DNA of 64,000 bases from an uncultured bacterium. GTDB taxonomy: Bacteria > Babelota > Babeliae > Babelales > Vermiphilaceae. Of the stretch, positions 15,830-64,000 are shown piece after piece. The number at the start of each line of letters is the position of its first letter. The stretch's first letter is position 1. Under the pieces are notes generated by a model. It saw only the letters and a program-made list of their open reading frames with translations, did not search any database and had not been told where the DNA came from. Location of the stretch: the NCBI GenBank assembly GCA_963695335.1, contig OY968764.1:1243895-1307894 (forward strand). The letters run 5' to 3'. Made by a program: the position numbers and the translations under genes.

Positions 15830-15839
15830 CACTTACAAC

Positions 15840-24241: not shown

Positions 24242-25225
24242 TTATTTTGCAAAACAACTTAACGACCCCTTTTTTTTCTTTTTATTTTGTTCTTTATAAA
24301 GTGCAACAATTGATTTACGGAAATATTTGGGTAATCTATCAAAAGATTGATATCCATTTACAGGAACATCAAAATTAATCCAATACGGTGCATATTCTCT
24401 ATAATTGTCTGGTATTATTGCACCTTCAAAATCAAATTGCTTATATGCACCCAGTTGCAACTTATCTTGATTGTTAATTTTATATATCCAATCTTTTTCA
24501 AAGCATAGATATGCTGAAGAGTTCAATAAAGCTTTTAACAATACTGGAAATTCTATAAGAGTGCTGACATCAAAAAATTCATATCTATCTTTCCTTCTTA
24601 TTGTCCCTAAACATATTCTTTCTTCTTGATTACCATCAGCAGAAAGAGAAAACTCTATAACTTGTATATTGTCATGCGCATGCTTGCCTTTATGTAAAAG
24701 ATAACAACAAAAATCTCCTTTTTCATTAAAAAAAGCTGCTGGCTGATGAGGCAAATAATGAAAAGAGCCAGATGGTCCACCCCATGTTGTATAATCCGGA
24801 AGCAACGTCACATTTAAACATCGCCGATCCATTATAAGCTCCTCCTGAAAAGGCCTTCCTCCTCGTAATCCAAAAGTTCGTAATGGCCAATTAGGTCGGT
24901 TGCCAATTGCTATTTTGCCACACACTGCGCCATATTTATGCCATACAACACCTTCAAGGTTATTTTCTTTTTTTACAGCTTCCAGACAATAATCACTTTC
25001 GATAAAATAGTGCTTTCGCCAATCAGCCGTCTGCAGCAAAATTGAATCATACTCTTTACTAACTTTTGCCAAAGCTTGAATCATTCGCCCATCGAACCAT
25101 TCAACACCATGCGTTAAAACAATATTCCATGCAATATTTTTATTTTCAGGGCTTACTACAAGAAGCTCCATAGCTGACAACAATGATGAATAAAAAACAC
25201 ACAAGAAAAAGATCAATACTTTCAT
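24242..25225 (-). CDS. leader-bearing protein with an F-box-like N-region and a polybasic CaaX-like C-terminus
   Basis: Leader ..SSLLSAME. IAWNIVLTHGVEWFDGRMIQALAKVSKEYDSIL is F-box-like. Ends NKKKKKGSLSCFAK*, with Cys at position -4. Confidence 0.5.
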   Translation of the reverse strand: MKVLIFFLCVFYSSLLSAMELLVVSPENKNIAWNIVLTHGVEWFDGRMIQALAKVSKEYDSILLQTADWRKHYFIESDYCLEAVKKENNLEGVVWHKYGAVCGKIAIGNRPNWPLRTFGLRGGRPFQEELIMDRRCLNVTLLPDYTTWGGPSGSFHYLPHQPAAFFNEKGDFCCYLLHKGKHAHDNIQVIEFSLSADGNQEERICLGTIRRKDRYEFFDVSTLIEFPVLLKALLNSSAYLCFEKDWIYKINNQDKLQLGAYKQFDFEGAIIPDNYREYAPYWINFDVPVNGYQSFDRLPKYFRKSIVALYKEQNKKKKKGSLSCFAK

Positions 25226-28104: not shown

Positions 28105-29049
28105 ATGAAAAAACAATTATATATCCTCAGCTTTATATCACTTCACATTCACGCTATGGAAACAATGGCATTGTTTCCTGATGAAATAATGACATCCATA
28201 ATGCAATACTCTTTACCAAAACTTAACTTATATTATAACAATACCCACAAGCCAGGAAGATGGTATCATACAGAAAAAGGAACCTTTCCAGATAATTCAG
28301 CTGATAGAGATAAAAAAGACACGCTCAATGCAGCACAAAACTTACAACAGATTTTTAATTCCATACAAACATCCCTGCTTCTGAGCAAATTTTATAATAA
28401 TGTGATTGTACAAAATATTAGTACATGGTTGGGTATCAATAAAGATAACGTTAATGCACTTCTCATCCGAGCAACGCAAGCAAATATCCCCTACTTTATG
28501 AAACTTGCTGTAGCGCACAAAGCTGATCGCAATTTTGTTCATAAACCTGATGGCTATACTCCTCTCTTATGCGCAACGAAACATAATCAGTATCGTACAT
28601 GTGCTTTTCTTCTGAGCAAGGGCGTTTCTGTACACATAAGAAGAGAAAACCCTTACGCAGCTTATGTTTATAATCCTCATGAATGGCCAATACATATCGC
28701 TATACAAAACGGTAATCTTGAATTAGTAAAACTGTTTATACAACATCGCGCCACTCTTGATTTTTCGCACTTTCCTATTACTTCTCTTCTTACTTTTACA
28801 GCACAACGGAATAATCCTTATATTCTTGCTGTGCTCTTAGAAGCTCGACCATATACGAATTTCAATAATCATTGGGAAGCTGATGAAATTGAACATGCCC
28901 TGGAAACAGTCAAACGTCTTGAAGTAAAAACTGATAAAGAAAAACTTGAAAATAGAGCTTGTATAAGTATATTACAAGAAGCGCTTAAAGATAGTACAAA
29001 CTCATTATCAGAAATGATGAACATGTTTTTTGGAACAACAAAAACATGA
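28105..29049 (+). CDS. leader + F-box-like + ankyrin-repeat protein
   Basis: Leader ..SLHIHAME. FPDEIMTSIMQYSLPKL. ANK repeats DGYTPLLCATKHNQYRTCAFLLSKGVS and WPIHIAIQNGNLELVKLFIQH. Confidence 0.8.
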   Translation: MKKQLYILSFISLHIHAMETMALFPDEIMTSIMQYSLPKLNLYYNNTHKPGRWYHTEKGTFPDNSADRDKKDTLNAAQNLQQIFNSIQTSLLLSKFYNNVIVQNISTWLGINKDNVNALLIRATQANIPYFMKLAVAHKADRNFVHKPDGYTPLLCATKHNQYRTCAFLLSKGVSVHIRRENPYAAYVYNPHEWPIHIAIQNGNLELVKLFIQHRATLDFSHFPITSLLTFTAQRNNPYILAVLLEARPYTNFNNHWEADEIEHALETVKRLEVKTDKEKLENRACISILQEALKDSTNSLSEMMNMFFGTTKT

Positions 29050-29093: not shown

Positions 29094-29971
29094 ATGAAAA
29101 AACAATTTTTTATTACCCTCTGCTTTATCACCATGCATAATTATACTATGAAAATAGAACAATCATTTCCTGATGAAACACTAGCATCTATTATTCAATA
29201 TTCTTTGCCAAAGCTCAATTTGTACTATCATCAAAAACCTACAGATATAAATGAAGATAAAGATAACTTAACTCAAGCAAAAAACAATTTAGAGCAATAT
29301 ATCACTACAACAATGAAACTACGTTCTATCAGCCAACGCTTTAATACTATTATCACCAAAAATATTGTTACCTGGTTAAACTTCAATCAACATGGTATTA
29401 ACGCATTTCTTCTCAGATCAACACAAGCAAATATTCCATATTTTATGAAAATTGCCATAACACATAATGGCCATCCAAATTGTGTTGATGCACCTAATGG
29501 CAATACTCCTCTCTTGTATGCAACTGCAAATAATGATTACCTCTCATGCAAATTTCTGCTTGAAAAAGGAGCTTCTATTAATATGAAACTACAACCTCCT
29601 CGAGCATTTGGTTATGGTTACAATCCTGGCATATGGCCAATACACATAGCTATTGGAAAAGAAAACCTTACATTAGTTACATTATTTATTAAACATGGAT
29701 CCCAGCTGGATTTTTCTAACTTTAATGCTGAAAATCTTCTTTCTTGTGCCGCAAAAAAAATAATCACGTTATTCTTTGCACCCTCCTTCAAGCTCGTCCT
29801 CATACAGATCACAACAATCATTGGCCAGAAAATGACATTAAACGCGCTCTTAAAACCGCAAAAGAACTTCAAATAAATACTGAACAGGAAAATCTTAAAA
29901 AGAAAGCTTGCATAGATATTTTAGAACAAGCATTAGAACATACTATTCTTATCAAAAAGGACATAGTATAA
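29094..29971 (+). pseudogene. ankyrin-repeat paralog of 28105..29049, frameshifted at an A8 tract
   Basis: The frame used from 29094 matches the paralog up to ..LLSCAAKK. The homologous continuation NNHVILCTLLQARPHTDHNNHW..ACIDILEQALEH is in another frame from 29744. The junction is aaaaaaaa at 29753-29760. Confidence 0.7.
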
Positions 29972-30694: not shown

Positions 30695-31366
30695 ATGAAA
30701 AGAATACCACTTCTTCTTTTATCTCTGCTATTTTTATCACCAATACATGCAATGTTATGTATTAAAAAACCATCGTATAATGCTCTTAAATTATATCAAT
30801 CTCGCAGCGCATTTCTTTCATCAAAAATGGATGTAGAGCTTGTCATTAGAAAGATTAAAGAGGTGGATAATCACCAATGCTCCTCTGTATACGAAACTAA
30901 AAGACAATGCGCCAATGATCTTTGCTGCAGACATGCGTACCTTGATGGCGACGTGAATCAAAACATACAAAAGCACTTCTTTAAAAAAATCAACAACCCA
31001 ATAGAATTTGTAGAAAATCTCAGACAAACTGTATATCAATTACGCTTATTTGACGGCTATCTAAAATGGAGATTATTACATTCTGCAAAAATACCTCATT
31101 GGCACATATATCAAGAAGCGCTTGGATTAATCGCCCATAAAAGCCAATGTATCCTAAACCAAATGCGCATGATATATCACGATGCTCCAGCAAACTGGGA
31201 TGAACGTACATATCATCACATAGGCGGCATGATCATAGCGGAAGAAATATTACCCGACCTGATCAAACTTAATCAACATGCAAAAAAGGTAACACAAGAA
31301 GATATGCAACACCTCATAGTTGCAGAAATACAGACAGACCAATCAAACAAAAATAATATAGAATAA
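30695..31366 (+). CDS. leader-bearing protein of unknown function
   Basis: Leader LLLLSLLFLSPIHAM. Cys-rich segment HQCSSVYETKRQCANDLCCRH. Divergent from the CDPS gene. Confidence 0.45.
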   Translation: MKRIPLLLLSLLFLSPIHAMLCIKKPSYNALKLYQSRSAFLSSKMDVELVIRKIKEVDNHQCSSVYETKRQCANDLCCRHAYLDGDVNQNIQKHFFKKINNPIEFVENLRQTVYQLRLFDGYLKWRLLHSAKIPHWHIYQEALGLIAHKSQCILNQMRMIYHDAPANWDERTYHHIGGMIIAEEILPDLIKLNQHAKKVTQEDMQHLIVAEIQTDQSNKNNIE

Positions 31367-32053: not shown

Positions 32054-32066
32054 TTTATTTAAGTAA

Positions 32067-33042: not shown

Positions 33043-33130
33043 TTAAGTAACAAGGCTTTACCACAATTTCCATAGCCTGTGAGTGAAAGACGAAAAATGA
33101 TACAAAATTAAGTACAATATATTTTTTCAT
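33043..33130 (-). pseudogene. orphaned 5' fragment (leader) of the IS-split gene 31379..32053
   Basis: Encodes MKKYIVLNFVSFFVFHSQAMEIVVKPCYL. Removing the IS and one target-site duplication (TSD) copy joins it in frame to ..NKMPRDILNY. Confidence 0.7.
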
Positions 33131-33259: not shown

Positions 33260-34525
33260 ATGTCTTATAAGCTTTTACTCTGTCTTCCTTTATTATCTAT
33301 CGCAACAACTTTAACAATGGAAACTCCTAAGCAAACCGAACCCAGACATATACCACCACTCTATCAAATATGTATGAACCAAATGAGCGCTGGATTTGGG
33401 AATAATGCAATTGAAAAACATGCAAATGCCATACAAAATCTTGCCACATTATATACAATTCATAAAGAAGGCAGATATAAACATATACCATATGGTATTG
33501 GATATGATGAAGTAGAAATAGTGAAAAACAATATCACTCCCAATCATCTCTGCTTCAACTCTGGAAAAAGTAAATTTTATAAAAATATTACCACTCAATT
33601 TCTTGTCAAACAGAGTAATGATACATTTTTTATACAAGACAATATGACAGACATTGCTGCATTCAATATCCAATCAGGCGAGATAAAGAAGATAGGTCAA
33701 GAAAATAGCTTTATTCGTTCGTGCATTACAACAAAAAAAACTAACATACTCATCAATGGTAACCACGATGGAATTATAACTATCTGGCCAATAGGAAGCA
33801 ATGATTGTTTTTGTAGCAACATTCATGGCAACGCTGCAATTATATGCCTTACAGAAGAAGATAATATTTTGTGTTCATCTGACCAAAATAGTTTCATAGC
33901 AGTATCATCTCTCAATAATGATCGTCTATGTAGACACAAACCGATTACGTTGCCTGACCTTTTTTCTGATATTACATATTCGAGCATTATGCTGCACAAC
34001 AAATTATTATATGCCGGATCATCAAAAGGATGCGTCAATCTTCATGATATTCGTTCTGAAGATGTACATAATTCTTTTCAGGCACACAAACATCGTGTTT
34101 CTTGTCTTATTGCATGTAAACATAATGATCAACATTTTTATTCCGGATCTTTTGATGGCAGCATTAAACAATGGGATCTACGAAATATCACAGAATGCCT
34201 CCACAGTTTTGAACACCAAAAATATGGAATAACATGCATGTATCAAAGTAATGATGGTCAAAAAATATATTCTGGCGGTGCTGATGGAATACGAATTTGG
34301 GATATTTCCGCTGATAAAAATGTTCAACAGCCAAAAGAAATACACGCTGTATATGGTTGTAAAAATAATAAAATAACAATAAAAGCTAATCTTAATTATG
34401 TTGATTGTATTGCTGTAAATGATGATGAATCAGAAATATATATTGCAAACATACCTTCCGGAATCACCGTATTGCATCAATCTGACATATATTCCATTGA
34501 GAAATTAATGGAAAAAATCACATAA
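33260..34525 (+). CDS. leader + WD40-repeat protein
   Basis: Leader ..SIATTLTME. WD-like units GNHDGIITIWP, AGSSKGCVNLHDIR, HKHRVSCLIAC..YSGSFDGSIKQWDLR and SGGADGIRIWDI. Confidence 0.8.
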   Translation: MSYKLLLCLPLLSIATTLTMETPKQTEPRHIPPLYQICMNQMSAGFGNNAIEKHANAIQNLATLYTIHKEGRYKHIPYGIGYDEVEIVKNNITPNHLCFNSGKSKFYKNITTQFLVKQSNDTFFIQDNMTDIAAFNIQSGEIKKIGQENSFIRSCITTKKTNILINGNHDGIITIWPIGSNDCFCSNIHGNAAIICLTEEDNILCSSDQNSFIAVSSLNNDRLCRHKPITLPDLFSDITYSSIMLHNKLLYAGSSKGCVNLHDIRSEDVHNSFQAHKHRVSCLIACKHNDQHFYSGSFDGSIKQWDLRNITECLHSFEHQKYGITCMYQSNDGQKIYSGGADGIRIWDISADKNVQQPKEIHAVYGCKNNKITIKANLNYVDCIAVNDDESEIYIANIPSGITVLHQSDIYSIEKLMEKIT

Positions 34526-34600: not shown

Positions 34601-35581
34601 ATGAAGAATGCGCAAATCTTTTCCTGTCTACTGTTTACCGCTGCCGCAACACACTGCATGGAATTTGATAACCACCCTACACCACAAAAACAAGAACCTA
34701 CTAATCCTTGGAACGCAATCAATTACCTCGAAATAGAACAATCTTTAAACGCTGATTACCGCAATTATTGTACCAATCGTCTCATAGAATACAAAAAAAC
34801 CACTTTTACACCGCAACATATGCAACACATCGAACAAATGGCAATCACATACACAGGCAATAATAATCTAAAGAAAATCCTGTATAACGTACGTGATGAA
34901 GAAGATAATCATTTCCCACATATTGCTGTTCAAAAATTTGATTTACCAACACTTACATGGCTTGTAACGCAAAAATTAATATATTATCCAAAAAATAAAC
35001 AAAATAAAGGATTTATGGAAGCATGCATTGATCACTTATCTCCCCATAACAATATAAATACTGAAAAAAAACAAATTGCATACGATATGCTCAATGTTAT
35101 CATAACAAACTATGGTAATCGCTTGGCGCTTTCCCTCAGAAAACCCATTGTAGAAAAATTGATTACACTCCAAATAGAGCATAAAAAACAACATAATAAT
35201 GATATCTTAGCTCACATTGTATTCACACCATTATTAGCTCAAGATGAAAATAATAATGTTGCAATTATTGATTTGCCAACACTGTATCAACAAGTTACCG
35301 ATGCCGATGGAAATACATTTTCTCATATTGTTGTCAATAAAAATGACGTACAAACACTTTATCAACTCATCAAAGATAACCGTGTATCGCCTACCCCTAA
35401 CAAGGCTAAAAAAACAGTAGTTGATCTTGCTTTAGCAAACTTCCAATGCTACATCAAAAGTCACTATATGAACGATTCATCTTCACATAAAGAGCAAGAA
35501 CTTGACGAAACATTGGATGCTCTAGCAAACTTTCCGCAAAAAGATAGTCTGCTGCTTGTTTATGCTCCTCAATTATGTTAA
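34601..35581 (+). CDS. member 1 of a four-gene tandem family (leader, degenerate ANK-like repeats); 3' end frameshifted
   Basis: Leader MKNAQIFSCLLFTAAATHCME, collinear with members 2-4. The family C-terminal module (CCLFMLLNY..PCCNQH) is encoded in another frame from 35547 to 35648. Confidence 0.65.
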   Translation: MKNAQIFSCLLFTAAATHCMEFDNHPTPQKQEPTNPWNAINYLEIEQSLNADYRNYCTNRLIEYKKTTFTPQHMQHIEQMAITYTGNNNLKKILYNVRDEEDNHFPHIAVQKFDLPTLTWLVTQKLIYYPKNKQNKGFMEACIDHLSPHNNINTEKKQIAYDMLNVIITNYGNRLALSLRKPIVEKLITLQIEHKKQHNNDILAHIVFTPLLAQDENNNVAIIDLPTLYQQVTDADGNTFSHIVVNKNDVQTLYQLIKDNRVSPTPNKAKKTVVDLALANFQCYIKSHYMNDSSSHKEQELDETLDALANFPQKDSLLLVYAPQLC

Positions 35582-35719
35582 AGCGCTGCAGACTAGCAAC
35601 AAATTATCCAGCTTTCCACCATGCTGTAATCAACATCCATTTATCTAGAAAAATACGTACACCATAAAAAAACAAAAAAAAATAATATCTTTTCATATTT
35701 CCAACAAAAGGACATTCTC

Positions 35720-36733
35720 ATGAAGCACATACAACTCTTTTCCTGTCTACTTTTTACTGCCATTGCAACCCATTGCATGGAAAACCAGCAAAACAATCAA
35801 CAAGCAGCACCAGAAAATCCATGGAAAGCTATTAATTGCCAAGCCATAGAAAAAAACCTTAATGATGACTATGATAGCTATCTTAAACAACGTTTAGAAG
35901 ACTATAAAACAAATGATTTCACACAACAAACAATGACCGACTTACAAACAATGGGTAATTTTATAACGGGAAAACAGAATATAGGTTTACCTTATAATCA
36001 TATTCGCGATAAGCAAGGCGATAGCTTTATCACCATCGCAGTTAAAAAACGAGACGTGCCAATTGTTAATTGGCACACAACAATCATCAGAAGAAATTAT
36101 ATTTCTCAAAAAGATTTTAACACATGCATTGCAACATGCATGCAATACCTCTCACCAAAAGAAACAGATAAAACCAAAAGAGATACTACATATACAATAC
36201 TTAAAAGGCTTACGCTAAAACACGGGCACTATACTATAGTACCTCTCTTACGTAATAAATCTGATAGAAAAAATCTTATCAAACAACTCATTACTCTACA
36301 AATTAAACATAAAAGACATAGCAGCAATTTTGTGATTGAAGATGAACTTATCACACAACATCTGACATCGGGAGAAAATGATCAATCACCTATTGCCATT
36401 GCCGATATATATCAAATGATTGCCAATAAAAAAGGAAATACATTATCGCATCTCGTTGTAACATCACAAGATCCAGATGAATTATGGAAGCTTATTACCA
36501 AAGAATATGTGTCTCCATTCCCAAATAAAGAGGAAAAAACCGTTCTCAATCTTGCACACGCATATTTCCAATCATTCAGCAAAGATGCAGCATCATTTGA
36601 TATATATCGAGAAGAATCTCAGCATGCTCGTTGCTGCTTATTCATGCTTCTCAATTATATCAAGTCAAAGCAAAACAATCAGGAACTTGCAACATTTACA
36701 CCATGCTGCGATAAACATACTGTAAAAAAATAA
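35720..36733 (+). CDS. member 2 of the tandem family
   Basis: Leader MKHIQLFSCLLFTAIATHCME. GNTLSHLVV..; C-terminus RCCLFMLLNYIKSKQ..PCCDKHTVKK. Confidence 0.7.
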   Translation: MKHIQLFSCLLFTAIATHCMENQQNNQQAAPENPWKAINCQAIEKNLNDDYDSYLKQRLEDYKTNDFTQQTMTDLQTMGNFITGKQNIGLPYNHIRDKQGDSFITIAVKKRDVPIVNWHTTIIRRNYISQKDFNTCIATCMQYLSPKETDKTKRDTTYTILKRLTLKHGHYTIVPLLRNKSDRKNLIKQLITLQIKHKRHSSNFVIEDELITQHLTSGENDQSPIAIADIYQMIANKKGNTLSHLVVTSQDPDELWKLITKEYVSPFPNKEEKTVLNLAHAYFQSFSKDAASFDIYREESQHARCCLFMLLNYIKSKQNNQELATFTPCCDKHTVKK

Positions 36734-36761
36734 TTTATATCTTCAACAAAAGGACATTCTC

Positions 36762-37766
36762 ATGAAGCGCACACAACTCTTTTCCTGTTTACTTTTCACC
36801 GCAATTACAACTCACTGCATGGAGGACAAGCCACAAAAACAAGAACTTGCAAATCCTTGGAAAGCAATTGATTGCCAAGTCATTGAAAAAAGCCTCACAG
36901 ACGACTATCATAACTATCTCAAAAACCGTTTGGAAGAATATAAAAAGGTTGATTTTACCCCTGAAAATATGATTCATCTGATATCTACAGGTATTTTTAT
37001 AACAGGAGATAAATACATAGGTCTTCCTTATAATGTTATCCGTGATGAAAACAATGATACTTTCCATAATATCGCAGTTAAACAACAAAATTTACCGGTC
37101 ATTAATTACTGTGTAAAAGGACATGGGTTTCATTGCATCACTCGTGATGACTTTGATCTATGTCTTGCAACATGCGTCAAACATCTTCACCCAGAGAAAA
37201 CTGATGCAACCGAAAAAACAACAGCCTATGAAATTATTAAAACACTCTGCACAAAACAAGGACCTAATGCGTCTATTTTTACTTTACGCGAAAAATCTTG
37301 CAGAGAAAATCTTATCAAGCAACTCATCTTGCTCCAAATCAAACATAAAAAATATAAGAGTGATTTTGTGATTGAAGATGAACTTATTGCGCAACACCTG
37401 ACATCAGGGGAAAATGATCAATCGCCTATTGTGCTAACAGATATGTATCAAACGGTTGCTAATAAAAAAGGAAATACATTATCTCATATAGTTGTAGAGT
37501 TACAAAACCCAGATGAGCTGCATCAACTTATTACCAAAAACTATATATCACCTGCTATAAATAAAACAAATGATACCGTACTCGATATTGCATTGTGGCA
37601 CTTCCAAGACTTTACTCATAACATATCTTCACTTGATGCGCATAAACCGCAAGCAGATCAATCACGATGCTGTTTATTTATGCTACTTAGCTATATTAAG
37701 TCAAAACAGAACGGCATATTAGACAAAAGTCAGCAATGTTGCGATAAACATCCTATAGCATTATAA
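36762..37766 (+). CDS. member 3 of the tandem family
   Basis: Leader MKRTQLFSCLLFTAITTHCME. Most similar to member 2. C-terminus RCCLFMLLSYIKSKQ..QCCDKHPIAL. Confidence 0.7.
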   Translation: MKRTQLFSCLLFTAITTHCMEDKPQKQELANPWKAIDCQVIEKSLTDDYHNYLKNRLEEYKKVDFTPENMIHLISTGIFITGDKYIGLPYNVIRDENNDTFHNIAVKQQNLPVINYCVKGHGFHCITRDDFDLCLATCVKHLHPEKTDATEKTTAYEIIKTLCTKQGPNASIFTLREKSCRENLIKQLILLQIKHKKYKSDFVIEDELIAQHLTSGENDQSPIVLTDMYQTVANKKGNTLSHIVVELQNPDELHQLITKNYISPAINKTNDTVLDIALWHFQDFTHNISSLDAHKPQADQSRCCLFMLLSYIKSKQNGILDKSQQCCDKHPIAL

Positions 37767-38410
37767 AACCAACAGCTTCCCATAAAAGAAACACAACAAA
37801 AAGGTACTTCTGATGAAAAATACACAACTCTTTTTCTATTTACTTTTCATAACAATCACAACTCATTGCATGGAACCCAATCCTTGGGCAGCCATTGATT
37901 GCCACAAAATCGAACAAACCTTATTTACTGATTACCGTAATTATTGCGCTGGACAACTTGAAGAATACAAGCAAACTACTTTTACGCCGCAACATATGAA
38001 ACATATAGAAGATATGGCAATCACGTATACGGGATACAATCATTATAAATCAACTCTCTATGATGTGCGTGATAAAGAAGATAATTGTTTTCCACATATT
38101 GCAATTCAAAAATTTGATTTACCAACACTTACATGGCTTGTAAGACAAAGAATATATTATCCAAAAAACAAACAGGGCAAAGGGTTTATCGAAGTATGCA
38201 TTGATCATTTATCCCCCCACAACAATATTGACGCTGAAAAGAAACAAATCGCATATGCTATGCTCAACACTATTATAACAAATTACGGCAAGAGGTTAGG
38301 CATTTCGCTCAGAAAACCAATTGTAGAAAATCTTATTGCGCTACAAATCGAACACAGAAAACAACACAACAACAATGTTTTAGCTGACATTGTATTGACA
38401 CCATTACTAG

Positions 38411-39769: not shown

Positions 39770-40222
39770 ATGAAATATATCAGAGTATATACATCTTTCA
39801 TGCTATTTTTACTATCGTCATCTACAGGAATGCAAAATATACACTTTAAAGAGCAACTGAGTGAAATAGAAAAATTAATTGTCTTGCATAAAATGAAACA
39901 TGCTAGTCATAAAATAGATTTTAATGCTGCACACATCTTTGATGCACCAATAATAACAAAAATTGAAAAAGATCGAACTGATGATTTTGCTACTTTGATT
40001 ATGGAAACTATCAAAGAGCAAGAAAAAGAACTGGGGTACGTACCAGAACAAATATCTGAAAAAATAGATGGGGTATGGCACCTTACCATACCCACCAATT
40101 ATATCGGCAAGTACACACGTTATTATCATACAAAAGATTTTGCAGGGGAGTATATTGAACTGCATTCAACGTTTATCTATCAACCAGCCGTACTAGAAGT
40201 GCTTAACAATTATTCCTCATAA
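39770..40222 (+). CDS. leader-bearing protein of unknown function
   Basis: Leader FMLFLLSSSTGMQ. No recognised domain. Confidence 0.4.
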   Translation: MKYIRVYTSFMLFLLSSSTGMQNIHFKEQLSEIEKLIVLHKMKHASHKIDFNAAHIFDAPIITKIEKDRTDDFATLIMETIKEQEKELGYVPEQISEKIDGVWHLTIPTNYIGKYTRYYHTKDFAGEYIELHSTFIYQPAVLEVLNNYSS

Positions 40223-40842: not shown

Positions 40843-41796
40843 ATGCATAAATATAATCTTCTCATTACCCTCACATCCCTTGTTACCGCATCCATACTAG
40901 CAATGGAACAAGAACAAAAAAACATACAACTTCAAAAAACAGAAAAATCTCGTTGTAAAATTTCTGAACTTCTAGAAAATCCTCGTACCCCAAAACGCCT
41001 TATAATGGAAATTAACAATTTACTAGAGAACAAAAACTTTACTCTTGATGCTCATTCTGTTGATTCAAAAACGCATCCATTCGAGATAAAAGTTGCTTTT
41101 TATAATGATAACATGGAACATGCATTAACGTATAAAATGCCACATGATTATCCATTTTATGCTCCTATTCTTTCATCTCTTGAAACGAGCAATACCATGC
41201 TTACAACACAAGACTTGATCGCCATTAAAAAAAAATTTAATGATGATCTTAAACAAATCTGGAATCCCGCACGACGAATGACTGAAATAGTTGCGATGAC
41301 TCATAAACACATAAGTTCCTATGAAGATCAAAAAATAGCATCTCAACGAGTTGCTCAAGGTTATGAAAGAACGTTACCTCAGATAAAAGAAAAATATCAA
41401 ACGACCAATGTCTATGTAAATAGCCAATATCCAGAATTTCAAGAAAAATTACATGGGCTTTGGATTAAAGAAATGCCAAGCGGATATTTTGTATTTCATG
41501 TCGAATATAATTACATAAATATAGCTTTTGAACCTAAGTACATAGGTGCAGAACCTCTATCATACCATGGATACTGTGCTGTGGGGTATCACGAGACACA
41601 TAATAACCAATTTCATATACACATAAGTGATACCAATGATTCAGGAAAAATAAATGCCTTTAAAATCTTTGTATACTCTGATCATATTTCAATCATATTT
41701 AACTCTCTACAACACGATTCAATCTTAAACGCCATCATATCTCAACTCAAAATGGATGATGTTATTGGAGAACGCATGGATTTAATAAAAATATAA
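40843..41796 (+). CDS. leader + UBC-fold (E2/UEV-like) domain protein lacking the catalytic Cys
   Basis: KRLIMEINNLLEN.., PFEIKVAFYNDNMEHALTYKMPHDYPFYAPIL and KQIWNPARRMTEIV parallel E2 KRIQKEL.., F..L.I.FP.DYPF.PP and WSPALT. No HPN-Cys segment. Start at the second ATG, which is shared with the 41880 leader. Confidence 0.5.
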   Translation: MHKYNLLITLTSLVTASILAMEQEQKNIQLQKTEKSRCKISELLENPRTPKRLIMEINNLLENKNFTLDAHSVDSKTHPFEIKVAFYNDNMEHALTYKMPHDYPFYAPILSSLETSNTMLTTQDLIAIKKKFNDDLKQIWNPARRMTEIVAMTHKHISSYEDQKIASQRVAQGYERTLPQIKEKYQTTNVYVNSQYPEFQEKLHGLWIKEMPSGYFVFHVEYNYINIAFEPKYIGAEPLSYHGYCAVGYHETHNNQFHIHISDTNDSGKINAFKIFVYSDHISIIFNSLQHDSILNAIISQLKMDDVIGERMDLIKI

Positions 41797-41879: not shown

Positions 41880-43034
41880 ATGCATACATATCATCTTCTC
41901 ATTATCCTCACATCAGTTGTTACTACATCTACTATGACAATGGAAGACTACCAACTTGATTTAGCTCATATAAAAAGGCTACAACGCAAATATATTGGAA
42001 AACATGGTTGGACAGTAAAAACAGACAAGAACGGAAAATACTCTGTATGCATAGATTGTAGTGATGGTCAAGGTGAGTTCTATGCAAAAACACAAGTTAT
42101 TCGCGAATTCAAAGAATATCAAAACACTCAATTCTTACTACAATTAGATACTACAAACAAATCCATAATCAGCGATGATAATGATGTGCACATTATTGAC
42201 ATGCAAACTGGCGAGGCTCAAGAAACTCTATCTGGTCATACAGATCTTGTCCATTGTTGCGCACATACCGATTACCGCCACATACTCGTTACAGGCTCCA
42301 ATGATACAACAATTAAATTGTGGAATATAAAAAATAATCAATGCATGCGAACATTGCATAGCCATAAACACTATGTAACAAATGTTGCTTCAAAAGGAAA
42401 TACTATCACTTCAACAGACAGAGAGCCTTGCTTAAAATTATGGGATATGTCATCTGCCAAAACATTTCATACAAAACTCTTTATTGATAAAAGTAATGAG
42501 CATCATATGCCTACGAGCCTCATGATGCATAACAACCTTATATATGTAGGACTCACAAAGGGGATAATCACAATAATTGATCCACGATCAACAATATCAG
42601 TCTATGAAGGAACTACCCACGCAGGCCCTGTTGAATGCCTTACTCCATGCACAAATAATAATGATGTATTCTATTCTGGATCATCAGATCAAACGGTCAA
42701 ACAATGGGATCTTCGTCGTCCTAATGCTCCCACCAAAATATTACATAAAAAAAATAATCCTGATAACCAAAAATATAGTATTCAAAATGTCTATGAAGAT
42801 CATAATGGTAAAAAAATATTTTCATCGGACAAAAATAGAATCTATATATGGGATGTTTCCACAGAAGAACCAAAAATAGTAACCACAAAAAAATTTGATC
42901 ATGCTATTTACCCCAACTGCATGCGCATGAATAATGATGAAACTGAGCTGTATATTGGCACAAAAGAAGGTATAAAAACCCTCACTCCCGCACTCAGCTT
43001 TGAACAACTTGCTGCATTAGCGGAACAAAAATAA
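41880..43034 (+). CDS. leader + WD40-repeat protein
   Basis: GHTDLVHCCAH..LVTGSNDTTIKLWNI, HSHKHYVTNV, LKLWDM and YSGSSDQTVKQWDLR. Confidence 0.85.
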   Translation: MHTYHLLIILTSVVTTSTMTMEDYQLDLAHIKRLQRKYIGKHGWTVKTDKNGKYSVCIDCSDGQGEFYAKTQVIREFKEYQNTQFLLQLDTTNKSIISDDNDVHIIDMQTGEAQETLSGHTDLVHCCAHTDYRHILVTGSNDTTIKLWNIKNNQCMRTLHSHKHYVTNVASKGNTITSTDREPCLKLWDMSSAKTFHTKLFIDKSNEHHMPTSLMMHNNLIYVGLTKGIITIIDPRSTISVYEGTTHAGPVECLTPCTNNNDVFYSGSSDQTVKQWDLRRPNAPTKILHKKNNPDNQKYSIQNVYEDHNGKKIFSSDKNRIYIWDVSTEEPKIVTTKKFDHAIYPNCMRMNNDETELYIGTKEGIKTLTPALSFEQLAALAEQK

Positions 43035-45845: not shown

Positions 45846-46502
45846 TTTGTTCTTATTGTATTCTTCAAAAAGAGCACGCTGCTTGATATAACAATCTTTT
45901 TTATGCCGCAAAAGCCCCGCTATTTTCTTACATTGCTCAGCGGTGATCTTGTCATGAGCCCACAACAATTTTCCTTCTTCTTCCTTGCTCTGCAATTTTT
46001 GTAAACCTGCGTTTACAGTCATTACAAAATGATGCTCCTGATTAGCATCAGAGAAAAGTTCAACTCTTTTTTTCTGAGCATCATACAGGTCAAGATACTT
46101 ACAACAACGTGGATTGCTACATGGGATTTTTTTAATATATGCAAAAGAACACTCATCACTACCAATTTCTGCAATATCATAATAAAGTTTTTCAGCCCTA
46201 AAAGCTTTTGGGTCACGTACATACTTATACGTTTTATGCACACCTTTACATGCACCACCAATAATATAACATCCAGCAACAGTTGCAACTTGCCCTAGAG
46301 CATAACCGAGAGGCAAAATGAACATTGCTGCAGCAACAATTTCACCAGCCTCATCAAAATTTCTTTTTTGTATCATAGGACTTGTTACATTGACCCGATG
46401 TACAGATTTTGGCATCCGCTTGGTAACCAACTGCATTGCAGATACTTCTGATGCAATGATCATTGATACGCACAATCCAAAAAAAATAGTCTTACCATCC
46501 AT
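45840..46502 (-). CDS. leader-bearing Cys-motif protein, paralog family member
   Basis: MDGKTIFFGLCVSMIIASEVSAMQLVTKR parallels 47370..48332. CSNPRCCKYLD motif. Confidence 0.6.
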   Translation of the reverse strand: MDGKTIFFGLCVSMIIASEVSAMQLVTKRMPKSVHRVNVTSPMIQKRNFDEAGEIVAAAMFILPLGYALGQVATVAGCYIIGGACKGVHKTYKYVRDPKAFRAEKLYYDIAEIGSDECSFAYIKKIPCSNPRCCKYLDLYDAQKKRVELFSDANQEHHFVMTVNAGLQKLQSKEEEGKLLWAHDKITAEQCKKIAGLLRHKKDCYIKQRALFEEYNKNKE

Positions 46503-46507
46503 CTGCT

Positions 46508-47335
46508 TTACTCTCTTGTTTGATTCTTGCCACAGTGCAATAACTTATACTCTTCATCGATACGGCTTAATTTATATGACACAGTACGATTGCCTACCAG
46601 AGCGTTTCTATAATCTATTTTTGCCTGCTCATCAACTATCGCATCTTTATATTCTTTCTCATTTTCATACCATTCACTAATATCATCTCGGATCTCACGA
46701 ATTTGTTTGATTTTAGATGTCATTTTAAAATGATCTTCTTTCCAAGTATCAAAGCTATCTTCTAAAATAACTTGTGCCTGATTAAACAAACATGCATTTA
46801 TATTAGAAATCATCGAATATAATACTAAACGCTTTGACCTATCTGCATTACAAAATTCATTCAATATAACTCTATACTGTATTAAATCTATATATAAGTC
46901 TTTAATATCTTCCAAATATGCAACTCTACCTTTTTTTTCAACATTCTCCAAAAATCTCTGCCTTATTGCATGTGATCTTCGCGCTGCTTGTATATTTTTT
47001 TGCATTCCTAACAACAATGCTCCACCGCAACATATAGGTGAATTACATGCATCTGCTTTGAGAATTCGCTCAGCAAGAAAATTTTCACATTTCTTTGCAC
47101 CTAATTCTTTAATGTCTTCATACATTTCTGCTAAATCTTTTGACGTATATAGTGCATCTGAATAAAAACTAACACTATCTTTACCTACTCGAATATCAAA
47201 AGGCCTACTATTATTTCTTTGTTGAATTTTACAAAAAACATTCGACATGCGCTTAGTTTTGACTATCATCGCATGTGTCACCGACACAAACATCACTGAT
47301 GCACTCAATACAAAAAATATATTCTTACATTTCAT
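46508..47335 (-). CDS. leader-bearing Cys-motif protein, divergent paralog
   Basis: MKCKNIFFVLSASVMFVSVTHAMIVKTKR, CNSPICCGG. Same RBS context (aaggagcagcagATG) as the next gene. Confidence 0.55.
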   Translation of the reverse strand: MKCKNIFFVLSASVMFVSVTHAMIVKTKRMSNVFCKIQQRNNSRPFDIRVGKDSVSFYSDALYTSKDLAEMYEDIKELGAKKCENFLAERILKADACNSPICCGGALLLGMQKNIQAARRSHAIRQRFLENVEKKGRVAYLEDIKDLYIDLIQYRVILNEFCNADRSKRLVLYSMISNINACLFNQAQVILEDSFDTWKEDHFKMTSKIKQIREIRDDISEWYENEKEYKDAIVDEQAKIDYRNALVGNRTVSYKLSRIDEEYKLLHCGKNQTRE

Positions 47336-47369: not shown

Positions 47370-48332
47370 TTATTCAATACTACTATGGCTACTTGAAGAA
47401 CTATCCGAAGAAAAACTACTATCCCTATATGATTGCGAAGAATAACTCTCCATATTTGACATATACGATGAACTTGATGAACTATCAGAATGGGCAGTTG
47501 CACTATCACAAATTTGCTTTGCCACATATGCATGCATCATCAACATATTTAAATCGCGCGCAGGATCGTCATTTCTACGGCCATCGTCAGCTTTATCTTG
47601 TTGCCGTGGTGTATGTTGTTGTAGATTACACTCTTGATTATGTTGCTGCTGATTATCATATCGCTGCGTCTTTGGGACCATCAAAGTAATAGATTTAATC
47701 TTCTCACAATATTCTTTATCGCTCTGTTTTTTTGCTTCAGCACTATCAAAAAATTCATCAGAAAGAGCTATCTGTTTTATATGACAATCTTTTTTATGCT
47801 CAAGAAGACCCATAATTTTTTGATATCCTTCAATATAAATTTTATCTTGAGCAAGTAATTGCTTTGCTTCTTCTTCTTTATTATGCAATTTTTGTAAACC
47901 ATCTTTTACCCGTACTAAAAAATCACGTCCCTGATTAATGTCACAAAAAAGTTCAGGTCTTTTTTCATAAGCAAAGAGTGGGTGAAGATTCTTACAACAT
48001 TGTGGGTTTTTACACACCTCTTTTTTGATATAAACATTGGAACATCTCTCGCTACCAATGCCTGCAACTTCATTATGTAACCTGTTAGCTGTAATTATCA
48101 TCTTAGTAATTGGGCAAGTATTTAGAGCTTCTTCTATACAACAAATAGCCACAGGAACACCAACAAACCATATTAATGCTCCAAAACTTCCCCTTTTTTG
48201 CACCAGGGGACTCATGCTATTCACCCGATACATAGTTTTTGGTATTCGTCTTCTAACCAATTGCATTGCAGATATTTCTGATGCAATCATCATTGATGCA
48301 CACAAACCAAAAAATATATTCTTACCATTCAT
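47370..48332 (-). CDS. leader-bearing Cys-motif protein with a Ser-rich C-terminal tail
   Basis: MNGKNIFFGLCASMMIASEISAMQLVRRR, CKNPQCCKNLH, tail DSSSSSSYMSNMESYSSQSYRDSSFSSDSSSSSHSS. Start at ATG 48332 with AGGAG upstream. Confidence 0.6.
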   Translation of the reverse strand: MNGKNIFFGLCASMMIASEISAMQLVRRRIPKTMYRVNSMSPLVQKRGSFGALIWFVGVPVAICCIEEALNTCPITKMIITANRLHNEVAGIGSERCSNVYIKKEVCKNPQCCKNLHPLFAYEKRPELFCDINQGRDFLVRVKDGLQKLHNKEEEAKQLLAQDKIYIEGYQKIMGLLEHKKDCHIKQIALSDEFFDSAEAKKQSDKEYCEKIKSITLMVPKTQRYDNQQQHNQECNLQQHTPRQQDKADDGRRNDDPARDLNMLMMHAYVAKQICDSATAHSDSSSSSSYMSNMESYSSQSYRDSSFSSDSSSSSHSSIE

Positions 48333-49586: not shown

Positions 49587-50702
49587 TTATTCACAACGCC
49601 CAGCTTCATGGGCATGATCTCTATCCCACTGGTTAATATACCCTTCCACCATTTGTCGCCGATCAGCAGGAATAGGATGTAGAGGATAAATAATTTCTTT
49701 TATTATCCTACTATTGAGTACTCTCTCTAGCCTACTATCTGATATTTTATTTTTCTTATAATAGTCTGTTTCATGTTCCTTCCAATATTTTGCAAACTCT
49801 TCAAGCTCTAATCGCGATACAGCATGTTCACACGCAAATGTATCCGCAGGTGCCTCAAACCAATGTTTCGATAAAAATCCACCTAAAACAGCATTGGCCA
49901 ATGCTTTTGGTACAATGGCACCAATAGCAGAACCAGATCGCAACATAGTCTTTAAAAATGTTTTTGGTTGCGGTTGAATATTATATAATTTTCTCAATAG
50001 TTTAGTTGCTCCAAAAGATAATGCCTCAACTCCAAGAGGGATTGTTGTGAGAGCATACACATATTTATTACTATCCTCATGAACAATATGACCAAATTCA
50101 TGATTTACAATCATTGATTCTCGAGCGATTTTTGCTTTACATTGAGCAACATTTTGTTTCTCTACATCAATCTGTGATTCTGCAGATTTAATTAATTGGT
50201 TATCAGCACGCGACAAAAGAAAAGATTTAAATATTCCCCTTTTTTCTTTTTGTTGCTTGGCATATTCAAATTCTTTTAAAGCTTGATGAAGTCTTTCTTC
50301 TGCTAGCGGCTGATTGACTAAGGCTTCATGCAATTGATCGCAAACTTCTGAAGAAACTGATACCACACCAATATGTTCATTAGCACGAGCATGAGCATGA
50401 CGTGAATTCTTATGAGTCACTAAGAATATAGGTTTAGAATGAGGCATATTTGCTTGTTTTTTTTGACCTTCAAACCAATCATTAAGAGCTGGTTGCGTGG
50501 GCAACTCTTCATCAAAATCCAATACATTTACTTTTTCTAATGCTTTTTTATAGTTCTTAGAATGATACAATCCAAGAGTTGGCAACGTTGTTACGCCAAC
50601 AAAACGAGCTAATTTAAAGACTTTTCCACCCATGGCAAAAGATGGGATCATAAACGTAAAAAGCAGCATTAGAGCTGCATATTGTAAATAACTTTTATTC
50701 AT
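49587..50702 (-). CDS. putative zinc metalloprotease (HExxH, M48-like)
   Basis: NHEFGHIVHED, with a downstream WFEAPADTFACEHA (E..AD) as in M48 peptidases. N-terminal TM segment. Confidence 0.55.
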   Translation of the reverse strand: MNKSYLQYAALMLLFTFMIPSFAMGGKVFKLARFVGVTTLPTLGLYHSKNYKKALEKVNVLDFDEELPTQPALNDWFEGQKKQANMPHSKPIFLVTHKNSRHAHARANEHIGVVSVSSEVCDQLHEALVNQPLAEERLHQALKEFEYAKQQKEKRGIFKSFLLSRADNQLIKSAESQIDVEKQNVAQCKAKIARESMIVNHEFGHIVHEDSNKYVYALTTIPLGVEALSFGATKLLRKLYNIQPQPKTFLKTMLRSGSAIGAIVPKALANAVLGGFLSKHWFEAPADTFACEHAVSRLELEEFAKYWKEHETDYYKKNKISDSRLERVLNSRIIKEIIYPLHPIPADRRQMVEGYINQWDRDHAHEAGRCE

Positions 50703-50860: not shown

Positions 50861-52135
50861 TTACTTTTGTGTCTCAATAAAAGGATTTACTCCACCATGC
50901 TTCCTTATTATTGCCTTATTTATTAAAGACAAAATTTCTGCATCTGATGTAATTGAAGGTTGCGGAAAACGTGTTGCTGCAGATTGTATTGCTGCTGCAT
51001 ACCCCTCTGGATAAATAATCTTTATAGCATTATTACGTGGCGTTACACCAAATTTATTGACAAACTCTGGGTCTGCTCCTGCATCAAGAAGTTCTTTAAT
51101 CATTAATTTATTTTTTGTATTAATTGCAGCCGAAAGAGCTGTAGTTCCTTTCTTATTCTGTTGATCTATTGCGATATAAGGATTATTTAAAAGACATTTG
51201 ACTGCTTCCATGTGGCCCTCATCCACAGCAAATAATAATGCTGTATCTCCATACATAGGAGTATCTTTATTAACATCTGCTCCATACTCAAGAAGTATAG
51301 TAATCATAGGGCAGTTATTGTCTTGTGCTGCATGCATAAGAGCTGTTAGTCCACCATTGCTTGGCTGATCTATCTTAATTCGAGGGTTACTTAAAAGACA
51401 TTTAACTGCTTCCATATGTCCTTGAGCAACAGCAAGTGCTAATACTGGGATTCCAGACTCTAAAACAATTTTATTAATATCTGCTCCATGCTCAAGAAGT
51501 ATAGTAATCATAGGACAATTGTTGTAAAACACTGCAAGCGAAAGAGCTGTGCCCCCATCAGTACCTACTTGATCTATCTTAATTTGCGGATTACTTAAAA
51601 GACATTTAACCGCTTCCATATGTCCTTCAGCAACAGCAAACCGCAATGCTGTCGTTCCTTTCGTATTACCTTTATTGATATCTGCCCCATGCTCAAGCAA
51701 TATATTAATAACAGGACAATGATTTTCTTGTGCCGCAAACATAAGGGCTGTACTCCCAAAACTATCTTGTTGGTCTACCTTAATGTGAGGATTATCTAAA
51801 AGACATTGAACTGCTTCTATATGCCCCTTTTGAGCAGCAAATATTAATGCTGTCCTCCCATCAGAATCAATTACGTTAACATCAATTCCATCATCAAGAA
51901 GTTTTGTAATTGTAGAGCAATCATTTTCCTTTGCTGCGTTCAAGAAGGCATCACTTTGTCCTCCTTGAATATATTTTTTATATGCTAAATAACCACCCCC
52001 AATAGCCGCTCCGATAAGTGCAATCAATCCTATTTTTTTTGCGGTACTTGATTCTTCTTCCATGCCATAATTATGATATGGTGTAATTATCAGCAAAAAT
52101 GCAGTGATCATGCTCAATTTTTTTGTACAATCCAT
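50861..52135 (-). CDS. ankyrin-repeat protein (about 9 repeats) with leader/TM
   Basis: Repeated DGRTALIFAAQKGHIEAVQCLL, GSTALMFAAQENHCPVINILLEHGADIN and similar units. Leader ..PYHNYGME followed by a second hydrophobic segment. Confidence 0.9.
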   Translation of the reverse strand: MDCTKKLSMITAFLLIITPYHNYGMEEESSTAKKIGLIALIGAAIGGGYLAYKKYIQGGQSDAFLNAAKENDCSTITKLLDDGIDVNVIDSDGRTALIFAAQKGHIEAVQCLLDNPHIKVDQQDSFGSTALMFAAQENHCPVINILLEHGADINKGNTKGTTALRFAVAEGHMEAVKCLLSNPQIKIDQVGTDGGTALSLAVFYNNCPMITILLEHGADINKIVLESGIPVLALAVAQGHMEAVKCLLSNPRIKIDQPSNGGLTALMHAAQDNNCPMITILLEYGADVNKDTPMYGDTALLFAVDEGHMEAVKCLLNNPYIAIDQQNKKGTTALSAAINTKNKLMIKELLDAGADPEFVNKFGVTPRNNAIKIIYPEGYAAAIQSAATRFPQPSITSDAEILSLINKAIIRKHGGVNPFIETQK

Positions 52136-52332: not shown

Positions 52333-53514
52333 TTATAATTGGCAGCCATGACTTTTAACTAAATTATACATAATAAAGCGCATAACTCCCGCAGGGATGT
52401 TCTGCATAGTTCCATAAAAATCAATGGTGTAATTTTTTAAAAACCAATATTTAAAAGCAAACGAGCGTTGCTTATCAATAGTATCAACCATCTCTTTGAG
52501 CCAACCTTTTGGCTCTCCTTGTTCCACATCGAATGCGGTTTTTTCCACACCATCATCTTCATGATACCAAAATGGATATTCCATTCGTTTAATGCTAGCA
52601 CGTGTAACACTATCACTATTTACAAAATACTGTAACAACAACCATGCATATTCTTGATCATTATTGCGTGCTGCAATCATAAGGGGAGAAAACTTTTCAA
52701 ACGACTGAGTACAATCTGGATCGGCACCATATGCAAGGAGCGATAGTGCTATAATACAATAATGCACTTTTCTATTTCCATGTTTTCCAAAGCTCCAACA
52801 GCGTTTTTTGGCGATATCCAACAACAAATTATTGTTGATTTTATTTTTGCAATCAGAGCCAACGGCAAGAAGCTGCTCTATTTTTTCAAAATCCATTGTT
52901 TTAAAAGCCAAAGAAAGTAACGTATGTGGACTGTACTTTTCCACCAGTTGTTTAAATTTCATTCCCGTTCTTTTTGGTCTGGTAGTATCTCTGCTTTTAT
53001 ATTTTGCCATTTTATGACTTAACCAACCATGGCTTACTTGATAGCTCGCATTCAAATACCAAGAATCTTGCAAATCTTCTGGTGTAAACTGCCTATCTGC
53101 ATCGGTCACAATATCAAACAACTGATCCATTTTTTGCCGTATAGTAAAAAAAACGCCGCCTTTTGAATTAAGGCAGCGAGCAACTGTTTCATCACACATC
53201 CAACGCTGATGTTGTGCAATACTCTTAATTATTTTTTGGGCACTCTTTTCTTTAGAAAATCTTTCAGAAAAAAACCTATTAACACATGTCACTGTCTGAA
53301 GATCTCTACCAAAGTGGTGTACCACACTATCATTGCAATGATTGTACTTTCTACCACCTGATTGATCTACAATAAAATGATTTTCAGCATACAGCCAGCT
53401 CAGAATCTTTACCAACACTTGATCTCTAACTTTTTCTTCTTGCTGTATCACCAAATCCATACTATGCAATGCAGTAGTAATAATAAACAATGCAAAAACT
53501 ATTTTTTTATGCAT
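52333..53514 (-). CDS. leader + F-box-like protein with C-terminal ANK-like repeat(s)
   Basis: Leader ..ITTALHSMD. RDQVLVKILSWL..CVNRFFSERF is F-box-like. FSPLMIAARNNDQEYAWLLLQY is ANK-like. Confidence 0.55.
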   Translation of the reverse strand: MHKKIVFALFIITTALHSMDLVIQQEEKVRDQVLVKILSWLYAENHFIVDQSGGRKYNHCNDSVVHHFGRDLQTVTCVNRFFSERFSKEKSAQKIIKSIAQHQRWMCDETVARCLNSKGGVFFTIRQKMDQLFDIVTDADRQFTPEDLQDSWYLNASYQVSHGWLSHKMAKYKSRDTTRPKRTGMKFKQLVEKYSPHTLLSLAFKTMDFEKIEQLLAVGSDCKNKINNNLLLDIAKKRCWSFGKHGNRKVHYCIIALSLLAYGADPDCTQSFEKFSPLMIAARNNDQEYAWLLLQYFVNSDSVTRASIKRMEYPFWYHEDDGVEKTAFDVEQGEPKGWLKEMVDTIDKQRSFAFKYWFLKNYTIDFYGTMQNIPAGVMRFIMYNLVKSHGCQL

Positions 53515-63991: not shown

Positions 63992-64000
63992 AAAAATTAT

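Follow-up and report, generated by a model that had tools for sequence, protein, structure and literature searches.

In a 64,000-nucleotide stretch of the genome of an uncultured Babeliales bacterium (GenBank assembly GCA_963695335.1, contig OY968764.1, positions 1,243,895 to 1,307,894; hereafter, the window), proteins of many unrelated families carry short N-terminal leaders that end at a common junction, in which a small residue is followed by methionine and, most often, by glutamate. The leader of a 326-residue orphan protein encoded from position 34601 is a typical example. This junction is a real feature, occurring far beyond chance, and it is specific both to the lineage and to the class of protein that follows it. 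With moderate confidence, the leaders are read here as Sec class I signal peptides of a Babeliales/Dependentiae protist parasite with a lineage-specific cleavage region, [L/I/T/V](-3)-[H/N/Y](-2)-[G/A/C/S/T](-1)/Met(+1)-[Glu > Asp, Asn, Gln](+2), the slash marking the predicted cut. Dependentiae constitute a widespread and barely cultured phylum of protist parasites, and to our knowledge no dedicated secretion system for effectors has been described in them.

Enrichment of the junction and its distribution across the lineage

The lineage of the window was assigned to Babeliales (Dependentiae/TM6) by a protein scan with tryptophanyl-tRNA synthetase (TrpRS), with one genome retained per species. 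The nearest loci, from metagenome-assembled genomes (MAGs) labelled Babeliales, TM6 or Dependentiae, are designated L001-L011 (96-63% identity), among which L001-8 are counted as close relatives and L009-11 are counted apart, while the remaining 69 loci of the scan, all from other phyla, served as controls. An additional 80 metagenomic Dependentiae loci were retrieved using a Dependentiae-specific membrane protein as the query. This marker, a membrane-anchored protein of about 190 residues without a Pfam family, adjoins trpS in the window (55287-55877, minus strand) and is conserved across the phylum (all of L001-L011 and L082-L161), with invariant SEVGPMNL and TKKGY motifs. Signal-peptide-like open reading frames (ORFs) were collected by a motif-blind detector, which requires a Lys or Arg close to the start and an uncharged, hydrophobic window of 10 residues, then locates the first charged residue and reads the residue preceding it.

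Methionine stands directly before the first charged residue in 15 of 36 such ORFs in the window and in 35 of 103 in L001-8, as against 4 of 218 in the controls (Fisher p = 3e-11 and 1e-15, respectively). When a small residue at -1 is required as well, the counts become 15/36 in the window, 32/103 in L001-8, 2/30 in L009-11, 28/219 in the 80 metagenomic loci and 2/218 in other phyla. The density of [AGSCT]-M-[ED] in residues 13-42, relative to the rest of the same ORFs, is raised 28-fold in the window (p = 3e-16) and 17-fold in L001-8 (p = 9e-32), and amounts to 0.5-fold in the 69 control loci. The frequency of the rule also follows relatedness, being 29% in loci whose marker protein is at least 66% identical and 12% below that level.

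The same junction occurs in three further contigs, of which L081 and L162 are Logan contigs (sample ERR11523672) encoding proteins of the source genome (L081 overlaps and extends the right end of the window, and L162 covers a different region), and L163 is a locus from a second genome, of 1.35 Mb. Among 120 database homologues of the ankyrin protein at 50861, the motif is present in most of the closest, including at least five of the eight nearest; distant bacterial ankyrin homologues with signal peptides mostly lack it. Overall, the rule is found in at least 31 unrelated families, or in 44 in a relaxed set. In the somewhat more distant loci L004, L005 and L008, many leaders end in a small residue followed by Ala-Glu, including those of paralogues of the Met-type methyltransferases (L004:6239-7117, L008:4890-5777, L008:5797-6645), and here Glu at +2 is more widely kept than Met at +1.

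The initial annotation of the window had suggested a lineage-specific cleavage or sorting signal and had made its case depend on whether methionine at +1 exceeds the chance expectation. In the loci sampled, both points are borne out, as the residue is enriched in the window and in L001-8 and not in the controls. The pattern recurs in Dependentiae relatives and metagenomic contigs, becomes rarer in more distant ones and is lacking in other phyla.

Architecture of the leaders and their probable signal peptide class

The window leaders are built alike: the N-terminus is basic, the hydrophobic core that follows is about 11 residues long, and the junction reads [L/I/T/V]-[H/N/Y]-[G/A/C/S/T]-Met-[Glu/Asp/Gln]. 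The median leader length is 19-20 residues, with a median uncharged stretch of 16 residues around the core, and the 23 typical window leaders all begin with M-K/R/H. Position -3 is occupied by L, I, T, V or A in 92% of cases and is allowed under the -3/-1 rule in 71 of 77 leaders. At -2, His (28%, against a background of 2.8%), Asn (18%) and Tyr (17%) prevail. In every one of the 15 window cases, the residue at -1 is G, A, C, S or T; the same holds for 32 of the 35 cases in L001-8, the remaining three (in L001, L003 and L008) having Leu and belonging to a membrane-anchor family. After the methionine, position +2 is Glu in 60%, Asp in 12% and Asn in 7%, and family-weighted residue frequencies reveal no conserved position or extended motif past +2.

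These characteristics correspond to those of substrates of Sec and signal peptidase I, both in the n- and h-regions (a basic n-region and an h-region of about 7-15 residues) and in the c-region, with a small residue at -1, a small or aliphatic residue at -3 and no Pro at +1. The initial annotation regarded the small residue at -1 as compatible with signal peptidase I and methionine at +1 as out of the ordinary, and both views are supported. Canonical signal peptides share with the present leaders the basic N-terminus, the core of about 11 residues, the residues at -1 and -3, the length of about 19-20 residues and an early acidic residue, whereas methionine at +1 accounts for 30-40% here and for about 1-2% in other phyla, and His is enriched at -2 here. 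The leaders thus appear to be Sec signal peptides with the architecture of a signal peptidase I cut just before the methionine, the exact position of the cut being deduced from the residues around it.

Other classes of targeting signal do not account for the leaders. The lipobox of lipoproteins processed by signal peptidase II (regular expression [LVI][ASTVI][GAS]-Cys) matches 2 of 77 leaders, and Cys alternates with G, A, S and T at -1, after H, N or Y. The twin-arginine motif of Tat signal peptides is found in 1 of 77, and the type IV prepilin leader (G/F or M-x-x-x-E, cut ahead of the hydrophobic stretch) in none of 77, the hydrophobic stretch here preceding the methionine and Glu standing at +2. 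The PEXEL or RxLR motifs, which lie up to about 40 residues behind a signal peptide, are not indicated either, given that no position beyond +2 is conserved, so that any resemblance is functional only. The leaders also fall outside the Q-rule of Bacteroidetes, as the residue at +1 is Met and Gln is not enriched there. No LepB box motifs were found in the Dependentiae loci retrieved.

Selection at the protein level and association with cargo classes

The four tandem paralogues beginning at 34601 keep T-H-C-M-E constant despite synonymous codons (ACA/ACC/ACT, CAC/CAT, GAA/GAG), and because the residues persist through these changes, selection acts on the protein and not on the DNA. The codons at -2 and +2 are used as in the genome on average, and those at -1 are diverse, 12 of 60 of them beginning with a pyrimidine. 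Accordingly, a signal at the DNA level (a Kozak-like RNNATGG, a restriction-like joint or a -10 box) was rejected. Among family members that are at most 70% identical, the identity of the leader is 18-48%, that of +2 is 66%, and from +3 onward it falls to 5-12%. Database homologues of the methyltransferase family and of the 34601 family keep the methionine down to 45% identity, with -1 and +2 varying; for the S-adenosylmethionine (SAM) methyltransferase at 59995, the methionine is invariant in seven database homologues, in which +2 is D, N, E or S. The methionine is held by purifying selection at the protein level.

The type of protein behind the leader is equally distinctive. The 104 proteins of the Met-type set include 22 ankyrin proteins, 18 methyltransferases and 8 WD40 proteins, the remainder being mostly orphans, while the 144 proteins of the non-Met signal-peptide-like set include tetratricopeptide repeat (TPR) proteins, TPR-glycosyltransferases, DoxX and DUF6165, with ankyrin not among its 25 commonest families. 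Across genomes, a given family essentially either has the trait throughout or lacks it. Small conserved families, such as those of the genes at 43117 and 43637, have ordinary sites in every genome, and conserved envelope-type families of the same genomes have ordinary sites such as AQA/SE. The rule is a class-specific mark of expanded eukaryote-like and orphan 'effector' families.

Two adjoining TPR proteins in the window (8189-11423) have leader-like N-termini of the non-Met kind, one of them with a weak glycosyltransferase-9 match, and this combination recurs in relatives.

Proposed explanation and alternative readings

According to the preferred reading, that of Sec class I signal peptides with a lineage-specific cleavage region, the whole leader would be translated from an upstream start preceded by a Shine-Dalgarno (SD) sequence, the protein would be exported by the Sec translocon, and signal peptidase I would cut between the small residue and the methionine. 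Since the leaders end right before Met-Glu, the exported proteins probably start with Met-Glu, and in some cases with Met-Asp. The reason for the methionine most likely lies after cleavage, where the new N-terminus might serve as a post-Sec sorting mark for export past the periplasm or might provide a native-eukaryote-like N-terminus for proteins reaching the host cytosol. An N-terminal Met followed by D, E, N or Q withstands methionine aminopeptidase, does not act as an Arg/N-degron and belongs to the substrate class of the N-terminal acetyltransferase NatB. The exposure of signal-peptidase-cleaved proteins to N-degron surveillance upon reaching the eukaryotic cytosol has been reported (PMC8037982). 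Both the exact cut and all roles downstream of it are what we infer from the residues at the junction.

Several points weigh against this reading. In 65 of 77 leaders, an alternative position compatible with the -3/-1 rule lies within 6 residues, so that the rule alone leaves the cut unfixed. The Ala-Glu paralogues in L004, L005 and L008 mean that the methionine is not indispensable, and since small N-terminal residues such as Ala or Ser would likewise be stable in the eukaryotic cytosol, host mimicry alone does not demand Met. In addition, the detector of signal-peptide-like ORFs is a home-made heuristic, and the related loci were drawn from around two marker genes or ankyrin genes, so the frequencies given above represent samples rather than whole genomes.

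A stronger form of the proposal, which is entertained tentatively and considered rather unlikely, takes [H/N/Y]-[small]/Met-[Glu/Asp/Asn/Gln] as a dedicated Babeliales signal for effector export or host adaptation, a counterpart of PEXEL/RxLR that would work by sorting, by mimicry of the N-terminus, or by both. A type II or vesicle route would then read the Met-acidic N-terminus and export several hundred ankyrin, WD40, F-box-like and orphan proteins from the periplasm, and these would pass as host-native in the protist cytosol, being of NatB type, resistant to methionine aminopeptidase and free of N-degrons.

The plainest alternative gives the methionine no role after cleavage and regards Met(+1) and Glu(+2) as a subsite taste of the lineage's signal peptidase I, or as a co-drift of enzyme and substrates. 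The canonical pattern at -3, -2 and -1, the gradual fading of the rule with phylogenetic distance and the existence of a lineage-wide precedent at +1 in Bacteroidetes (PMC5837995) are all consistent with it. However, a general preference should affect all substrates, and the sorting of the trait by cargo class therefore counts against it; the same genome also has about 11 apparently cleavable leaders with ordinary non-Met sites, and whole families stay Met-type or non-Met-type across genomes, which makes this explanation unlikely. A historical explanation, in which a leader was added upstream of genes of cytosolic type (ankyrin, WD40, methyltransferase), through 5' extension or through fusion, and the methionine is left over from the original ATG, would suit cargo domains that are normally cytosolic, the drop in conservation directly after +2, as at a fusion joint, and the fact that one gene caller began a homologue (P0008) at the leader-end Met. 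Yet a leftover would decay, so the persistence of the methionine, unchanged between a diverging leader and linker and through synonymous drift of neighbouring codons, counts against such an origin. Position 2 of native leaderless genes is moreover occupied by K, N, S or A, with Glu below 5%, compared with 60% Glu after the leader-end methionine, and the idea is judged improbable. A leaderless methyltransferase of the window (15801-16595) showed no detectable relationship to the Met-type methyltransferases on attempted alignment. It is very improbable that the hydrophobic stretch is an uncleaved signal anchor that tethers the protein to the inner membrane, with Met-Glu at the membrane boundary: although the long N-terminal extension ahead of the hydrophobic stretch in the window case at 6710 would suit an anchor, a typical membrane span is longer than the cores seen here (about 11 residues, in an uncharged stretch of about 16), the true anchor family encoded beside TrpRS has stretches of at least 20 residues and no small residue at -1, and a strictly small -1 is the signature of a peptidase.

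Two further possibilities had been raised by the initial annotation, and neither withstands the comparison. One was dual initiation, in which ribosomes would also start at the internal ATG and so produce, without the leader, a cytoplasmic isoform with the same sequence as the mature secreted protein. The methionine is necessarily encoded by ATG, the leaderless isoform would equal the processed protein, and about 45% of genuine starts here are likewise without a strong SD sequence. Anti-SD duplex energies were computed for three groups of sites (annotated starts, ATGs at leader ends and the remaining internal ATGs) with a cut-off of -5 kcal/mol, and pairing at or below this value was found for none of 57 leader-end ATGs, compared with 53-55% of the annotated starts of the same genes (Fisher p = 3e-12); other internal ATGs pair in 9-13% of cases, more often than those at leader ends. 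A tract resembling a ribosome-binding site inside the leaders, which had been put forward as a check, is thus lacking before these 57 ATGs by anti-SD pairing. In addition, the methionine is replaced by Ala, which does not initiate, in paralogues of L004, L005 and L008, and no replacement by Val (GTG) or Leu (TTG) was seen, leaving dual initiation with only the slightest probability. The other possibility, a leader module moved between genes by recombination at the ATG joint, is the least probable of all. Leaders of unrelated families do share a position-specific pattern, insertion sequence (IS) elements are active in the island, and one neighbouring pair in L003 reaches 69% DNA identity; this value is nevertheless the maximum, the mean DNA identity of leaders between families is 36% against 30% for codon-shuffled sequences, no near-identical leaders are found across families, and there is no conserved DNA motif beyond ATG-GAA, the codons at -1 being diverse.

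Relationship to known systems

The closest analogue of the methionine rule is, by comparison of the two patterns, the Bacteroidetes Q-rule, in which Gln at +1 of signal peptidase I substrates is cyclised to pyroglutamate and stabilises exported proteins (PMC5837995, PMC10653852). Both concern a lineage-specific and nearly fixed residue right after the signal peptidase I site of many unrelated exported proteins, both were found from sequence statistics, and both are thought to act via the new N-terminus, the cut being a predicted one in the present case. Unlike Gln, however, Met offers no cyclisation chemistry; the phylum is different, a cargo class is covered here and most substrates there, and +2 (acidic or amide) is also constrained here.

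In Plasmodium, processing of PEXEL (RxLxE/Q/D) exposes a mature N-terminus x-E/Q/D that is needed for export into the host (bioRxiv 10.1101/2023.07.12.548774). PEXEL and the oomycete RxLR resemble the present motif in being short conserved motifs just behind the signal peptide of otherwise unrelated host-directed effectors, but they belong to eukaryotic endoplasmic reticulum pathways with a dedicated protease (plasmepsin V) and have different sequences, whereas the motif here coincides with the signal peptidase site, and any export role of it is conjectural. A third comparison is offered by bacterial lipoproteins. Asp at +2 is known for avoidance of the Lol pathway, and Bacteroides possesses a lipoprotein export signal. 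In these proteins, too, residues right after the cut, often acidic, decide the post-Sec destination, although the lipoprotein rules involve a lipidated Cys(+1) produced by signal peptidase II, whereas no lipobox is present here and Cys is one of several small residues at -1.

The cargo observed here is in line with genome reports on relatives. Of the 126 ankyrin proteins of Babela, 79 bear signal peptides and are believed to be delivered to the amoeba cytoplasm, with type II as the only secretion system detected (PMC4378268), and in Chromulinavorax, signal peptides are present in 44% of coding sequences and in 78% of ankyrin proteins (PMC6561590). Type II or Sec is, according to both genome papers, the sole route of secretion detected. 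No description of a Met(+1) rule, in Dependentiae or elsewhere, was found in the literature searched, including these two genome papers. This 'Met rule' is best regarded as a modified form of the Sec/signal peptidase I signal peptide, in which the position of the cut and the reason for the methionine are proposed from the sequences. Only one known lineage-wide '+1 rule' for signal peptidase I substrates, that of Bacteroidetes, would precede it, and it would be the first tied to a cargo class.

Implications for annotation and effector research

The public gene call P0008, a homologue of L001:609-1475, starts at the internal methionine (MEPDSV..) and drops the leader, and automatic annotation may therefore undercount signal peptides in the Dependentiae lineage. 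With the rule, gene calls that wrongly begin at the internal Met can be corrected. At little cost, it would also allow the host-directed secretome to be told apart from envelope proteins by sequence across hundreds of MAGs, and Met at +1, Glu at +2 and His at -2 offer a mutational handle on how Sec-exported proteins reach the host cell.

Leaders in the window and neighbouring genes

The window, which belongs to a contig of 1,366,684 bases, has a G+C content of about 34%, and its housekeeping genes, identified by similarity (ffh, rpsP and trpS), are interspersed with islands of ankyrin, WD40, methyltransferase and orphan genes. It contains 24 complete leaders, and a 25th is cut by the window end (Table 1). 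All leaders listed in the initial annotation are present with the residues quoted there. Its figure of about 20 unrelated proteins was right in that many unrelated cargo types are involved and overstated in that some 13-15 families account for the 24 proteins, several of these being tandem paralogue arrays. For the minus-strand genes it listed at 16611, 24242, 45840, 46508, 47370, 50861 and 52333, the positions are those of the stop-codon end, and the leaders lie at the high-coordinate end.

Table 1. Positions of the leaders in the window (the slash precedes the junction methionine).
Leader	Position	Strand	Gene or protein
..KYSFLCYIFLIFFAPLHG/ME (..APLHG/ME)	6710..6886	+	atypical; junction 57 residues into ORF
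MKMVKRTLLSVVMLMTSLFTIHG/ME	17511..17585	-	ankyrin protein; ORF 16611-17585
MKVLIFFLCVFYSSLLSA/ME	25166..25225	-	no Pfam family; ORF 24242-25225
MKKQLYILSFISLHIHA/ME	28105..28161	+	ankyrin protein
MKKQFFITLCFITMHNYT/MK	29094..29153	+	ankyrin paralogue
MKRIPLLLLSLLFLSPIHA/ML	30695..30757	+	
MKKYIVLNFVSFFVFHSQA/ME	33068..33130	-	30-aa stump of split gene; DDE transposase 32152-33030
MSYKLLLCLPLLSIATTLT/ME	33260..33322	+	WD40 protein
MKNAQIFSCLLFTAAATHC/ME	34601..34663	+	leader of the opening example; encodes MKNAQIFSCLLFTAAATHCME, to which 34664-34666 adds Phe; 326-aa orphan protein, first of four tandem paralogues (34601-38436)
MKHIQLFSCLLFTAIATHC/ME	35720..35782	+	paralogue 2
MKRTQLFSCLLFTAITTHC/ME	36762..36824	+	paralogue 3
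MKNTQLFFYLLFITITTHC/ME	37813..37875	+	paralogue 4; gene split by IS5-family transposase
MKYIRVYTSFMLFLLSSSTG/MQ	39770..39835	+	
MHKYNLLITLTSLVTASILA/ME	40843..40908	+	likely start 40843, within ORF 40822-41796
MHTYHLLIILTSVVTTSTMT/ME	41880..41945	+	WD40 protein
MDGKTIFFGLCVSMIIASEVSA/MQ	46431..46502	-	ORF 45840-46502
MKCKNIFFVLSASVMFVSVTHA/MI	47264..47335	-	ORF 46508-47335
MNGKNIFFGLCASMMIASEISA/MQ	48261..48332	-	likely start 48332, within ORF 47370-48365
MNKSYLQYAALMLLFTFMIPSFA/MG	50628..50702	-	ORF 49587-50702
MDCTKKLSMITAFLLIITPYHNYG/ME	52058..52135	-	ankyrin protein; ORF 50861-52135
MHKKIVFALFIITTALHS/MD	53455..53514	-	weak ankyrin protein; ORF 52333-53514
MRYIILLLSLYTTPLYG/MK	59079..59135	+	methyltransferase-family paralogue
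MKKYVLLAAFIISALNG/MD	59995..60051	+	SAM methyltransferase
MKKYLIALCFINSLNC/ME	60880..60933	+	methyltransferase paralogue; GTG start
..IIFMGNVFS/MK	63968..64000	-	partial, last gene; ORF list gives 62264-63991, true start beyond base 64000

The gene at 34601 has an upstream SD sequence, aaaggag, and a protein identical to its product is found as P0009 in the homology database (NCBI and ENA); an exact-sequence look-up gave nothing. The fourth paralogue is interrupted by the IS5-family transposase at 38495-39244, and its 3' remainder is the ORF at 39226-39642, which ends in the C-terminus of the family, RCCLFMLL..CCDKHVITI. At 6710, a strong SD sequence is present and no start codon is found near the hydrophobic stretch, the codons at the expected start reading AAA TTA GTA AAA TAT; either decay of the start or an n-region of unusual length could account for this. 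A DDE transposase (32152-33030, plus strand; PF13612, E = 9e-56) lies between the stump at 33038-33130 and the ORF at 31379-32053, both on the minus strand, and the region 31379-33130 has the appearance of one effector gene interrupted by an insertion sequence. The three methyltransferase paralogues lie at 59079-61812. In L081, the last gene of the window encodes a 592-residue protein with the full leader MKSNGVTRLIAFLTIIFMGNVFS/MK and a weak Skp1_POZ match.

The 34601 orphan family also possesses a conserved Cys-rich C-terminus, RCCLFMLLxYI ... CCDKH followed by 3-10 residues, which is found in the window at 35720-37766 and 39226-39642 and in the database proteins P0010, P0011, P0013 and P0014, and is replaced in the 34601 protein itself. 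This tail may serve for lipidation or for the binding of metal. A leaderless cyclodipeptide synthase (PF16715, E = 4e-42) is encoded at 29979-30593 on the minus strand, amid the effector island.

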